Source: Vectrevirus DIJ06P1. From it: a stretch of 44,766 nt of DNA. Position 1 is the stretch's first letter, and every line of letters begins with the position of its first letter. The position numbers and the translations under genes are program-made. This document shows, piece by piece, positions 775-33,451 of the stretch. The DNA is taken from the sequence record OZ035817.1. The stretch is one strand, 5' to 3'. The notes beneath the pieces were generated by a model. That model saw only the letters and a list, made by a program, of their open reading frames with translations. It searched no databases and was not told where the DNA came from.

Positions 775-2659
775 AGAATCACAGGCAGAGGCATTAAAGC
801 GGTGGGAAAACCTTAAAGAACTACAAGACACTTTTAAATATACAGCGGAAGGTTTGCTTCTCTTTGCAGATACAGTTATTCATAACTTAATTGCAGGCAA
901 CCCTCATCTGATTCGTATGCAGGCTGATATCTTGAAGTTCCTATTTTACGGACACAAGTACCGCCTCATCGAAGCGCCTCGTGGTATCGCTAAGACAACA
1001 CTATCAGCAATCTATACGGTATTCCGTATTATTCATGAACCGCATAAGCGTATCATGGTTGTGTCCCAAAACGCCAAGCGAGCAGAGGAAATCGCAGGTT
1101 GGGTAGTTAAAATCTTCCGTGGCTTAGACTTTCTTGAGTTTATGCTGCCGGATATCTACGCTGGGGACCGTGCATCCGTTAAGGCGTTTGAGATTCATTA
1201 CACCCTACGTGGTAGTGATAAGTCTCCTTCTGTATCCTGTTACTCAATCGAAGCAGGTATGCAGGGTGCTCGTGCTGATATTATTCTAGCGGATGACGTA
1301 GAGTCGATGCAGAATGCTCGTACGGCAGCGGGCCGTGCCTTGCTTGAGGAACTGACTAAGGAGTTTGAATCTATCAACCAGTTTGGGGATATCATTTACC
1401 TTGGTACACCTCAGAACGTAAACTCTATCTACAACAACCTACCTGCTCGTGGTTACTCTGTTCGTATCTGGACTGCGCGTTACCCTTCAGTAGAGCAAGA
1501 GCAATGTTATGGCGACTTCCTTGCACCTATGATTGTTCAAGATATGAAGGACAACCCAGCACTTCGCTCAGGGTACGGGTTGGATGGTAATAGTGGTGCA
1601 CCTTGTGCCCCTGAAATGTATGATGATGAAGTCCTAATTGAGAAGGAAATCTCTCAGGGTGCTGCTAAGTTCCAGCTTCAGTTCATGCTTAACACTCGCA
1701 TGATGGATGCTGACAGATACCCATTACGCCTGAACAATCTAATCTTCACCTCGTTTGGTACAGAGGAAGTCCCTGTGATGCCTACGTGGAGTAATGATTC
1801 CATAAACATCATTGGTGATGCACCTAAGTATGGTAACAAGCCTACGGATTTCATGTACAGACCTGTAGCTCGCCCATACGAATGGGGTGCTGTCTCCCGC
1901 AAGATTATGTATATTGACCCTGCGGGTGGTGGTAAGAACGGAGATGAGACGGGTGTAGCCATCGTATTCCTGCACGGCACATTCATTTATGTGTATCAGT
2001 GCTTTGGTGTACCTGGCGGATACCGAGAGTCGTCCCTGAATCGCATTGTGCAGGCCGCACAGCAGGCGGGTGTTAAAGAGGTATTCATTGAGAAGAACTT
2101 TGGTCATGGCGCGTTTGAGGCGGTAATTAAGCCGTACTTTGAACGAGAGTGGCCTGTAACTCTGGAAGAAGATTACGCCACCGGACAGAAAGAATTGCGT
2201 ATCATTGAGACGCTGGAGCCGCTCATGGCAGCCCATAGGCTTATCTTCAATGCAGAGATGGTGAAGTCAGACTTTGAGTCGGTACAGCACTATCCGCTTG
2301 AACTACGCATGTCCTACAGTCTTTTCAATCAAATGTCGAACATAACGATTGAGAAGAACAGCCTCCGGCACGATGACCGCCTAGACGCCCTGTATGGCGC
2401 TATACGGCAATTAACTTCTCAGATAGACTATGACGAGGTTACACGGATTAATCGCCTCAGAGCGCAGGAGATGCGAGATTACATCCATGCTATGAACACA
2501 CCTCATCTACGCAGGGCAATGCTATATGGGGATTACGGTACTGAGCGAAGAGTGACCAACACTTCCGTAGCGATGCAGCAGCGAGTTTACGGGCAGAACT
2601 ACCGAAATAAATCGGCAAGCAGAAATACACTTTCTGCAAGGATTTCAAGGACTTATTAA
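761..2659 (+). CDS. terminase large subunit (T7 gp19-like)
   Basis: ATG at 761 after AAGGAG; segments such as ADIILADDVE, IYLGTPQN, KFQLQFMLN and DRYPLRLNNL match my recollection of T7 gp19. A GTG at 722 is an alternative start. Confidence 0.9.
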   Translation: MAKARESQAEALKRWENLKELQDTFKYTAEGLLLFADTVIHNLIAGNPHLIRMQADILKFLFYGHKYRLIEAPRGIAKTTLSAIYTVFRIIHEPHKRIMVVSQNAKRAEEIAGWVVKIFRGLDFLEFMLPDIYAGDRASVKAFEIHYTLRGSDKSPSVSCYSIEAGMQGARADIILADDVESMQNARTAAGRALLEELTKEFESINQFGDIIYLGTPQNVNSIYNNLPARGYSVRIWTARYPSVEQEQCYGDFLAPMIVQDMKDNPALRSGYGLDGNSGAPCAPEMYDDEVLIEKEISQGAAKFQLQFMLNTRMMDADRYPLRLNNLIFTSFGTEEVPVMPTWSNDSINIIGDAPKYGNKPTDFMYRPVARPYEWGAVSRKIMYIDPAGGGKNGDETGVAIVFLHGTFIYVYQCFGVPGGYRESSLNRIVQAAQQAGVKEVFIEKNFGHGAFEAVIKPYFEREWPVTLEEDYATGQKELRIIETLEPLMAAHRLIFNAEMVKSDFESVQHYPLELRMSYSLFNQMSNITIEKNSLRHDDRLDALYGAIRQLTSQIDYDEVTRINRLRAQEMRDYIHAMNTPHLRRAMLYGDYGTERRVTNTSVAMQQRVYGQNYRNKSASRNTLSARISRTY

Positions 2660-2680
2660 TTACTGGACACTATAGAAGGA
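2656..2680 (+). promoter_or_regulatory. SP6-type phage RNAP promoter
   Basis: ATTACTGGACACTATAGAAGGA just after the terminase stop; matches the consensus repeated across the window. Confidence 0.7.
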
Positions 2681-2824
2681 AGGCCCAGATAATAAGAGAA
2701 AATAATAGGTAATATATAGGTTAACCTAGGTTATATAGGTATGCCTTAGTATGGGTGTACTCCTGTACACCCTATTCATTACTACCTTACTACCTTACTA
2801 TATTTACATAATAGGAGAGATACA

Positions 2825-3103
2825 ATGGCTAATGATTATAGTAGTCAACCATTAACAGGTAAGTCTAAGAGAAAGCAGGTACAACCTGTAAGTGAAGAAC
2901 TAATGCTTCCGGTAATCAAAAAAGAGGAAGCTAGTAAGAAAAGCAATGCTATTAATGATGCCACCAAATCAGGTAAACAGAAAGGGGCCATGGTGTGCCT
3001 TGAAGTGGAAGGTGGTGTATTGAAGATTGCTATCGCGGTTGATGGCAAAGAAGATTCAGAGTGGAAGTTAGTAACAGCGAAACCAACTGTTATCCCAGTT
3101 TAA
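2825..3103 (+). CDS. hypothetical protein (paralog A of tandem pair)
   Basis: 92-aa ORF; shares SGKQKGAMV...IA(I/V)A block with the next ORF. Confidence 0.5.
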   Translation: MANDYSSQPLTGKSKRKQVQPVSEELMLPVIKKEEASKKSNAINDATKSGKQKGAMVCLEVEGGVLKIAIAVDGKEDSEWKLVTAKPTVIPV

Positions 3104-3121
3104 GAGAAGGAGGAAGATTAC

Positions 3122-3415
3122 ATGGCTAAATATGGTACTACAGGTTCTGTTACTGGTCAGGCTTTTCGAGTAAAAGCAGTACAAACTATTGCAACGGCAA
3201 TCCCTATGCCTGTTGTTGCTGAAGCAGACCTTAAGAAGAAAGATCACCCTATCAACATCAAACACCTGTCAGGTAAGCAGAAAGGCGCAATGGTTGCTGT
3301 TGAGAGAGATGACACAACCATGCATATTGCTGTTGCACGTGGTAGTGAACCAACAGACTCTTGGGATGTAACTGGTATGGAAGAGGACGCTGTCACTCCA
3401 GCAGGTGGAGAATAA
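3122..3415 (+). CDS. hypothetical protein (paralog B of tandem pair)
   Basis: 97-aa ORF after GAAGGAGGAAG RBS; same SGKQKGAMV motif as 2825..3103. Confidence 0.5.
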   Translation: MAKYGTTGSVTGQAFRVKAVQTIATAIPMPVVAEADLKKKDHPINIKHLSGKQKGAMVAVERDDTTMHIAVARGSEPTDSWDVTGMEEDAVTPAGGE

Positions 3416-3759
3416 TGCTTAACAAATACTTCAAGCGTCGTGAGTTCGCTTGCCGTTGTGGTTGCGGTACATCCACCGTTGATGCTGAATTACTACAGGT
3501 AGTCACAGATGTGCGTGAGCACTTTGGTTCTCCTGTAGTTATCACTTCGGGGCACCGCTGTGCTAAGCACAATGCTAATGTAGGAGGAGCTAAGAACTCC
3601 ATGCATCTTACTGGTAAGGCTGCTGACATTAAGGTACGAGGCATCTTACCTTCTGATGTACATAAGTATCTTACTGATAAGTACCAAGGCAAATATGGGA
3701 TTGGTAAGTATAACTCCTTTACTCATATTGATGTACGTGACGGGTGTGCACGATGGTAG
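3415..3759 (+). CDS. peptidase M15-type peptidoglycan hydrolase (candidate endolysin)
   Basis: ATG overlaps the upstream stop (TAATG); SGHRCAKHNANVGGAKNSMHLTGKAADI fits the SG(Y/H)R...GG...S.H..G.A.D zinc-peptidase signature as I recall it. Confidence 0.65.
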   Translation: MLNKYFKRREFACRCGCGTSTVDAELLQVVTDVREHFGSPVVITSGHRCAKHNANVGGAKNSMHLTGKAADIKVRGILPSDVHKYLTDKYQGKYGIGKYNSFTHIDVRDGCARW

Positions 3760-3867
3760 GTTGTGTTGCATGGTGTGAACGCATGGTTGCTAAGGCTTCA
3801 GAGGAAGGCAACTATGAAGATTGGCAGAACTACTCAACTTTATTAGCTCAATGGAAAGGGAGATGCA

Positions 3868-4017
3868 ATGAAAAAGCTGTTCAAATCTAAGAAGGTTGTA
3901 GGTGCACTAGTTGCATTGGCAATTGCTCTTGTTTCTGTAGGTCTTGGTGTAGACCTTGGCTCTGGCACGGAATCCTCTGTGACAGACGTGGTCTGCCAAG
4001 TGATCACCTGTGAATAA
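3868..4017 (+). CDS. small membrane protein, 49 aa
   Basis: ATG at 3868; hydrophobic core VVGALVALAIALVSVGLGV; below the ORF-track size cutoff. Confidence 0.3.
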   Translation: MKKLFKSKKVVGALVALAIALVSVGLGVDLGSGTESSVTDVVCQVITCE

Positions 4018-21894: not shown

Positions 21895-21918
21895 TTTACT
21901 GGACACTATAGAAGGAAA
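21894..21918 (+). promoter_or_regulatory. SP6-type phage RNAP promoter
   Basis: ATTTACTGGACACTATAGAAGGAAAG; followed by a TAGGT-repeat leader. Confidence 0.75.
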
Positions 21919-21980
21919 GCCTAGGTAATCTAGGTTTATAAGGTAGTATGGGTAATTAAGTAAATATAGGAGATATAAAT

Positions 21981-22664: not shown

Positions 22665-22686
22665 TTACTGGACACTATAGAACAAT
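22664..22686 (+). promoter_or_regulatory. SP6-type phage RNAP promoter
   Basis: ATTACTGGACACTATAGAACAATAGG, overlapping the upstream stop codon. Confidence 0.7.
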
Positions 22687-22741
22687 AGGTCGGCTTAGTT
22701 CGGCCTATGATTGTGTAGTGTAACAATAGGAGACTAAATAA

Positions 22742-26926: not shown

Positions 26927-26945
26927 TTGACACTATAGAACAAAG
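26921..26945 (+). promoter_or_regulatory. SP6-type phage RNAP promoter
   Basis: ATTTAGTTGACACTATAGAACAAAGGG; closest to the canonical SP6 sequence; overlaps the upstream stop codon. Confidence 0.7.
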
Positions 26946-27026
26946 GGCTAGGTAAGACTTTATCGGCTGGCGTATCCAAATGATATTGCACTAGCCCTTG
27001 ATTGTATAGTGAATGGAGGATTCAAT

Positions 27027-33416: not shown

Positions 33417-33451
33417 GCCCTATCTACCTTGCGTAGGTAGGGTTCTTTTTG
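33417..33451 (+). terminator. intrinsic terminator after the capsid gene (T-phi analogue)
   Basis: CCCTATCTACC - loop - GTAGGTAGGG followed by TTCTTTTTG; 10-bp stem. Confidence 0.7.

Follow-up and report, generated by a model that had tools for sequence, protein, structure and literature searches.

A tandem pair of small late genes in Vectrevirus DIJ06P1 that probably encode virion-surface accessory proteins

The DNA studied here (the window) is the whole stretch of 44,766 nucleotides of Vectrevirus DIJ06P1, sequence record OZ035817.1, and our subject is a pair of small open reading frames (ORFs) that lie on its + strand between the genes of the large terminase and the endolysin. The first ORF (copy 1) spans 2825..3103, encodes 92 amino acids, and has the ribosome-binding site AGGAG 8 nucleotides 5′ of its ATG. 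The second ORF (copy 2) spans 3122..3415, encodes 97 amino acids, and is preceded by the strong ribosome-binding site AAGGAGG; its stop codon overlaps the ATG of the endolysin gene (TAATG at 3413-3417). The two ORFs are genes 41 and 42 of phage K1-5. Copy 1 is the ortholog of K1-5 gene 41, SP6 gp42, and Kp7 gp45, and copy 2 is the ortholog of K1-5 gene 42, SP6 gp43, and Kp7 gp46. Hereafter, the products of the two window genes are called gp41 and gp42.

The initial annotation had described the two ORFs as tandem paralogs that share the block SGKQKGAMV and diverge elsewhere. Both ORFs are present, and their pairwise alignment (BLASTP) gave 28 identities in 83 positions (34%, E 1e-13). The block itself was confirmed at 2969..2995 in copy 1 and at 3269..3295 in copy 2, both on the + strand. 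However, the similarity is not restricted to it, because an alignment over 83 residues means that the homology is nearly full-length and reaches beyond the block. When the two DNA versions of the block were read directly, all differences fell at third codon positions. Thus, the block is conserved at the protein level. In a joint 29-sequence alignment of both ortholog sets, there were 13 invariant columns (M1, T11, G12, P30, N45, S50, G51, K52, Q53, A56, M57, A72, and W81), and the residues S, G, K, Q, A, and M of the block were invariant in both sets.

In addition, the hidden Markov model (HMM) of the family, run with filters off on the 407 ORFs of the window, found exactly two copies (E 1e-33 and 2e-29). 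Both proteins matched PHROG 2725 (E 1.9e-36 for copy 1 and 6.8e-45 for copy 2), and each ORF had about 100 close homologs of 90-100 amino acids, carried mostly by contigs of about 44 kb. There were zero internal stops among the 24 distinct orthologs of each gene, and the median pairwise ratio of nonsynonymous to synonymous substitution rates (dN/dS, Nei-Gojobori) was 0.34 for copy 1 and 0.31 for copy 2, which indicates purifying selection on both. Thus, neither copy is a degraded pseudogene.

The pair is preceded by its own promoter. The promoter of the phage RNA polymerase, AATTACTGGACACTATAGAAGG, lies at 2657..2678 on the + strand (the initial annotation had given 2656), with the predicted transcription start at G2675. 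Eleven + strand copies of its core GGACACTATAGAAG (here at 2665-2678) were counted, compared with 0.44 expected by chance, and the site fits the consensus derived from the 11 aligned promoter sites, (A/T)TTTAC(T/C)GGACACTATAGAAG. Furthermore, 22 related loci have a conserved promoter site 5′ of the gene that opens their family cluster. The transcribed leader of 150 nucleotides (2675..2824, + strand) is rich in TAGGT, as had been noticed before, with four copies at 2706, 2717, 2727, and 2736 against 0.25 expected in 150 nucleotides. At other promoters of the window (21901-21926, 26928-26953, and 22670-22695), (C)CTAGGT or ATAGGT occurs within about 10 nucleotides of the start. Thus, the TAGGT element may be a general trait of the leaders of this phage and not specific to genes 41 and 42.

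The leader also contains, on the + strand, the overlapping palindromes TAGGTTAACCTAGGT, the pyrimidine-rich direct repeat TTACTACC at 2779-2794, and a perfect 8-bp hairpin, GGGTGTAC-TCCT-GTACACCC, at 2753..2772. The order of promoter, TAGGT repeats, hairpin, and pyrimidine-rich tract is conserved between K1-5-like and SP6-like loci. At the matching place, the SP6 hairpin is GGGAGGTA-TCCT-TACCTCCC, and other lineages have GGGTAC/GTACCC stems at this site. In loci L027 (SP6), L022, L023, L026, and L028, we saw matching hairpins with the same position and the same TCCT loop on different complementary stems, and the leader hairpins of all lineages fold at about -14 kcal/mol. The stem letters thus change while place, loop, and folding energy stay, a pattern that indicates selection for the structure of the hairpin. 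The folding stability of the whole leader was not unusual (z = +0.36), and an Rfam search of the leader gave no match above noise. The record of phage KAW1A4500 annotates the hairpin as a putative terminator. However, the hairpin has no clean U-run, unlike the strong terminator-like hairpin found directly 3′ of the major capsid gene (33417-33443, + strand; 11 bp followed by TCTTTTTGTT). The leader hairpin may be a weak terminator or attenuator, a processing site, or an mRNA stabiliser.

The copy number of these genes was then compared across related phages. At least two copies were present in 22/22 SP6-like IMG/VR loci. In SP6 itself, two copies are full-length and the third is truncated (gp42, gp43, and gp44), and Pectobacterium phage PP1 and phage Kp7 have three tandem copies each. 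In the neighbour-joining tree of the copies, which was built without bootstrap, three clades were formed. The first includes window gp41, K1-5 41, SP6 gp42, PP1_1, and Kp7 gp45; the second includes window gp42, K1-5 42, SP6 gp43, PP1_2/3, and Kp7 gp46; and the third holds the N-terminal domains of the third genes together with SP6 gp44. The clades sort by position. Thus, the paralogs have been maintained as distinct, position-specific genes across genera. The initial annotation had pictured a local duplication followed by divergence; the tree points instead to an ancient event with positional orthology, older than the split of several genera (K1-5-, SP6-, PP1-, and Kp7-like). As a side observation, P0110 (L037 1632-1919 and L038 1023-1310) joins a gene-41-like N half to a gene-42-like C half at SGKQKGAMV. 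This chimera may be a genuine recombinant; it may also have arisen in assembly, as both contigs stop 44 nucleotides past the gene.

Close relatives differ in whether they have the third gene, located between gene 42 and the endolysin gene, and the window lacks it. Its product consists of the family domain and about 150 amino acids of no recognised fold (phrog_32357). We found the third gene in 31 phage records, and SP6 gp44 is a truncated version of it. The presence or absence of this gene accounts for the length difference of about 670 bp among the records that match the window region. For instance, it lies at 1305-1982 in L040 (KAW1A4500_00051), at 3581-4258 in L039, and near 4290-5000 in L011, L012, L021, L024, L026, and L028. 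We also considered phrog_32357 as a knob, and no knob was detectable there; the PDB hit came from one true knob fusion in the alignment.

The two window proteins belong to a family defined by a domain of about 90 amino acids (PHROG 2725), which has no Pfam model and no fold match in the PDB. A profile search of 1.84 billion representative proteins (E up to 1e-3) gave 228 matches, and a further homolog search with a deep profile added no sequences. Most of the 228 matches are 80-105 amino acids long. Among the best 150 of them, about a quarter carry three tandem repeats (256-319 amino acids) and a few carry two. In the remaining members, the domain is N-terminal and a second module comes after it. 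For example, the needle knob of Sf6 type (PF16532) is fused in P0270 (E 1.7e-30) and in Rem54 of Ralstonia phage Reminis (E 5e-43), Ig (immunoglobulin)-like domains are fused in P0283 and in P0339 (the latter by reading its sequence), and the distal part of the phi29 head fibre (PF11133) is fused in P0330 (26.5 bits, cut-off 24.6). P0296 and its relatives have a helical insert ahead of the terminal ITPA. In ECBP5 and PP99-like phages, a knob gene adjoins the family gene. The ORF128w of RB43 was considered as a myovirus member after a tblastn search and was rejected, as it has the knob only, without the family domain. Meanwhile, in several three-repeat proteins (P0207, P0208, P0212, P0217, P0297, P0257, and P0315), the N- or the C-terminus bears a short tail that is strongly basic (for example, KKTRTRTAK or KRTRKTK).

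The genomic position of the family is constant. In every locus with readable context, the family genes come directly after the large terminase gene, as one to three tandem genes or as three fused repeats. For the three-repeat genes, the terminase was seen upstream on short Logan contigs, and searches of IMG/VR and JGI metagenomes gave nothing on their genomic context.

The product name given to PHROG 2725 and to the RefSeq entries (NC_008152, NC_004831, NC_019542, and others) is acetyl-CoA acetyltransferase. Among the uses of this label that we found, the earliest is in the annotation table of UAB_Phi78 (PMC4837284), where it is marked 'putative'. If the label were right, the two ORFs would be thiolases, and the label itself is the sole support for this reading. 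Against it, a Pfam search of both ORFs with E up to 1 found no thiolase and no other family, and the same search of 86 family members found no family, thiolase included. In addition, prediction gave a small beta-sheet fold, for which there was no enzyme-like match. Thiolases are about 390 amino acids long and consist of an N- and a C-terminal domain, compared with 92 and 97 amino acids for the ORFs here. We therefore give this reading practically no credence. The label is wrong as judged from sequence and size, and since neither the ORFs nor the 86 family members match any Pfam family, it should be discarded.

Structure prediction, which had been proposed along with the initial annotation, gave a confident beta core and a low-confidence but conserved N-terminal arm. 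With a shallow alignment, AlphaFold reached a predicted local distance difference test (pLDDT) score of 68.5. For copy 2 with 86 diverse sequences, the score was 84.3, and core residues 30-85 were above 90. The modelled core comprises four short strands and two short helices. The first 25 or so residues were of low confidence in the model despite the invariant T11-G12 and the conserved R16 and K18, and we infer that this arm may become ordered only upon binding a partner. In a search by sequence profile, no chain in the PDB matched the family, and neither fold nor sequence matched the solved decoration proteins (lambda gpD beta-tulip, T4 Soc, T5 pb10 N-domain, and alpha-claw). Thus, the fold appears to be unrepresented among solved structures at the thresholds used. 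Charge complementarity between the two paralogs was not conserved.

The most direct evidence on function comes from Klebsiella phage Kp7. The capsid protein of the window matches PDB entry 7y3t, the capsid protein of Kp7, over its full length (796 bits), the adaptor matches 7y22, and the major capsid proteins of the two phages are 75% identical. According to the Kp7 preprint, 'minor capsid proteins (gp32, gp45, gp46, and gp47)' were among the proteins identified when bands of purified virions on a silver-stained gel were cut out and analysed by mass spectrometry (bioRxiv 10.1101/2024.05.19.594906). In the Kp7 record ON148527, gp45 (88 amino acids), gp46 (88 amino acids), and gp47 (178 amino acids, 'with Ig-domain') are flanked by terminase gp44 and endolysin gp48, and the record names them 'minor capsid protein' as the preprint does. 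The best Kp7 match of window gp41 is gp45 (44.6% identity, E 2e-20), and that of window gp42 is gp46 (47.7% identity, E 1e-18). Furthermore, the family HMM matched Kp7 gp45, gp46, and gp47 with E values of 5e-25, 1e-30, and 2e-22, respectively. The T5 capsid decoration protein pb10 carries an Ig domain that is homologous to the one in gp47 (5lxk, E 2.8e-16; 8zvi, E 6e-17). Thus, the extended family members share the pb10 plan of a small anchor with an outward Ig domain.

We propose that genes 41 and 42 probably encode late, soluble virion-surface accessory proteins of about 10 kDa, with the shared domain serving as a capsid anchor. By analogy with the Kp7 orthologs, the two products are most likely present in the virion. 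Three candidates had been named in the initial annotation, namely decoration proteins, lysis regulators, and anti-defence paralogs. The first is favoured by the recovery of the Kp7 orthologs from purified virions and by the Ig-like, knob, and head-fibre modules that the domain carries in relatives. The late promoter with strong ribosome-binding sites, the synteny, the purifying selection, and the orthology by position established here are also counted for the accessory-protein reading, as is the model with its confident core and low-confidence arm.

In the proposed mechanism, each protein would be one module of about 90 amino acids, with an extended N-terminal arm (TG.xxR.K), a beta core bearing the SGKQxGA motif, and a C-terminal (V/I)TPA strand. 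This module would dock as an anchor on the assembled particle, most likely on the capsid surface. The two copies were kept separate from before the split of SP6-, K1-5-, PP1-, and Kp7-like phages, and this long separation is taken to mean that copy 1 and copy 2 may occupy non-equivalent sites or assemble into a hetero-oligomer. The same is suggested by units that repeatedly come in threes (as genes or as repeats), by the trimeric nature of partners such as the knob, and by the positional orthology. In relatives, the anchors would bear outward adhesion modules, namely Ig-like domains, the Sf6-type knob, the phi29 head-fibre tip, fibre motifs, and perhaps an esterase. This phage has two bare anchors only, which would thus display no domain and would serve instead to cement or coat the particle. 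The binding site, the stoichiometry, and the effect on the particle are what we infer from these comparisons.

Some points weigh against a capsid-surface role. First, virion detection was made in Kp7, not in this phage, and was reported in a preprint from cut gel bands without quantification. Second, 'capsid' is the label of the Kp7 authors; no published map locates the proteins, and the Kp7 structures are cited as unpublished. Third, the Kp7 capsid (7y3t), adaptor (7y22), and fibre (7xyc) have been deposited, yet no PDB chain matches the family, so the family proteins are not modelled in any PDB entry searched. Fourth, some fusion partners (the tail-fibre motif, the 'Tail fiber protein', and perhaps the SGNH esterase) fit the tail as well as the head. 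In the literature searched for this phage, K1-5, K1E, and SP6 (the 2004 SP6 genome paper was outside reach), we found no proteomics or structures of these proteins.

The tail-like fusion partners bear on a second explanation, in which gp41 and gp42 are virion proteins of the tail or neck. The domain would then be a base that plugs fibres, knobs, and esterases into the adaptor or nozzle, and the bare copies would be stubs that fill or regulate the sockets. On one Logan contig, a three-repeat gene is followed by a gene for the domain plus a motif common to many tail-fibre families and PHROGs. When the model was compared with viral models by Foldseek, N-terminal matches were obtained to a 225-amino-acid 'Tail fiber protein' of Marinomonas phage CPP1m and, more weakly (E 9e-4), to a 558-amino-acid SGNH-esterase protein of Pseudomonas phage BUCT553, and proteins of 230-365 amino acids from Vibrio, Erwinia, and Pseudomonas podophages were matched as well. 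In phage Reminis, the gene for the domain and knob comes after a putative tailspike gene. In addition, Vibrio phage MGD2, which encodes a K1E-type adaptor, has family genes of 91, 235, and 365 amino acids in a row, followed by a gene of 559 amino acids. With such fibre-like partners, a tail or neck location keeps a place among the explanations, and we regard it as unlikely on the following grounds. The Kp7 authors, who have cryo-electron microscopy data, call the proteins minor capsid proteins and list the tail proteins apart. The nearest homolog of the Kp7 gp47 Ig domain sits in the capsid decoration protein pb10, and one fusion bears the phi29 head-fibre tip. Furthermore, the family HMM found nothing in the two tailspikes or the adaptor of the window.

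A third explanation is that the products of the two genes are late, cytoplasmic, and not structural, and simply co-purify with virions; they could be a helper in packaging or maturation, a protein that times lysis, or an anti-defence protein. The genes do sit between those for packaging and those for lysis, with the endolysin on the same transcript, and small abundant proteins could contaminate virion preparations. Meanwhile, one family protein, the metagenomic P0335 (122 amino acids), joins the domain to an Acb2/Tad1 hairpin (PF24729, 42.5 bits). The Acb2/Tad1 hairpin is a module of anti-CBASS and anti-Thoeris signal sponges. This fusion was found in 1 of the 29 longer family proteins scanned, and the N half of P0335 resembles the knob fusion P0270, so P0335 may be a recombinant. 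Neither window protein contains the hairpin, and the analysis yielded no evidence of Pfam or PADLOC type for them; the anti-defence candidate thus has almost no support. The lysis-regulator candidate is disfavoured by the lack of the transmembrane segment or signal sequence of a holin-type regulator: the top 19-residue Kyte-Doolittle mean was 1.64 for copy 1 and 1.12 for copy 2 (the maximum of copy 1 falls within its charged beta core), and both proteins are hydrophilic overall. In addition, nearly all of the fusion partners identified are extracellular or virion-surface modules, and three separate family proteins were recovered from Kp7 virions. On account of these partners and this recovery, a purely cytoplasmic role is quite improbable.

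Returning to the capsid-anchor proposal, we also considered a broader form of it. The domain could be a capsid-anchoring fold new to solved structures, in which non-equivalent paralogs or fused repeats form a pseudo-trimer or hetero-oligomer and offer a socket for swappable adhesion or enzymatic modules on T7-like heads. This broader form is put forward tentatively, and we would rather doubt it than rely on it.

Judged from ORF lengths, the 44,766 bases are a complete genome in permuted form, and the phage is a K1-5-like Vectrevirus, a podophage of the T7 supergroup. Region 2400-3900 was matched by 104 phage records, all of them Vectrevirus or SP6-like podophages; the closest record is Escherichia phage vB_Eco_Sem1 (97.7%), and K1-5 shows 93% nucleotide identity. 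The small terminase gene lies at 30-329 and the large terminase gene at 722-2659, upstream of the pair, and the M15 peptidase endolysin gene follows downstream at 3415-3759 (Pfam E 4.8e-33). Small genes that the K1-5 annotation calls holin and spanin, and two tailspike genes with S74 chaperone domains, also lie downstream. An HNH endonuclease ORF (184-774, + strand; Pfam HNH_3, E 4.4e-11) overlaps both the small and the large terminase genes and is probably a homing endonuclease; a phage promoter core lies directly upstream of it at 128-141. In a relative (L039, 194-2836), the large terminase was called as two pieces of 405 and 259 amino acids around an ORF of 177 amino acids, which suggests that this terminase may be interrupted by a mobile element.

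SP6- and K1-5-like phages are widely used in phage therapy and depolymerase work, and their heads are usually viewed as bare shells of T7 type. If gp41 and gp42 are surface accessory proteins, they may influence the stability of the particle and possibly adhesion. They would also offer a natural display scaffold, as relatives already bear Ig-like and knob modules on the anchor, and a misleading metabolic annotation that has spread through many phage records would be corrected. If the broader anchor-and-socket proposal is true, a group of phages whose capsids are regarded as plain would have a secondary system for adhesion on the head. Since the anchor domain has no solved structure, a capsid map of any such phage would define a new accessory-protein fold. 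It is already known that the genes exist, as they have been catalogued, and that orthologs have been reported as minor capsid proteins in a preprint and in GenBank; proteins of this kind are barely described. The domain-level picture (N-terminal anchor, three-repeat fusions, and a third gene that is polymorphic), the great age of both copies, the lack of a solved fold, and the error in the metabolic label appear to be new relative to the sources searched.

The window genes can be compared with several known systems. K1-5 genes 41 and 42 are the same genes in the same order and with the same promoter, and the same holds for SP6 gp42, gp43, and gp44; the K1-5 and SP6 records attach no function to them beyond the unsupported acetyltransferase name. 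Kp7 gp45 and gp46 are like the window ORFs in family, in their place between large terminase and M15 endolysin, and in subfamily (Molineuxvirinae). However, the third copy of Kp7 (gp47), which ends in a C-terminal Ig-like domain, has no counterpart in the window, and presence in virions refers to Kp7 only. T5 pb10 is built of an N-terminal capsid-binding domain and a C-terminal Ig-like domain, and this plan matches the extended family members but not the window proteins, which have no Ig domain; the pb10 anchor has no detectable similarity in sequence or fold to the family anchor. In addition, pb10 is a single gene, whereas the family here has two or three paralogs or a three-repeat protein. 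The phi29 head fibre gp8.5 and the Sf6 tail-needle knob provide the distal modules that are fused to the family domain in P0330 and in P0270 and Rem54, respectively, but their basal domains are unrelated to the family, and the window proteins carry neither module.

Finally, alpha-claw and alpha-paw of PhiM1 and HRP29 are two paralogous small decoration proteins of a T7-like podophage that occupy different quasi-equivalent sites, one bare and the other with an extra arm (PMC11440229). PhiM1 was considered as a solved example of the family and was rejected, because its proteins are unrelated alpha-helical clips encoded elsewhere and we saw no family gene annotated after its terminase. The PhiM1 and HRP29 proteins are helix-turn-helix dimers encoded elsewhere in the structural module, whereas the family here is predicted to be beta-rich and its genes come after the terminase. 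Nevertheless, this pair is a precedent for the division of labour that we propose between copy 1 and copy 2.

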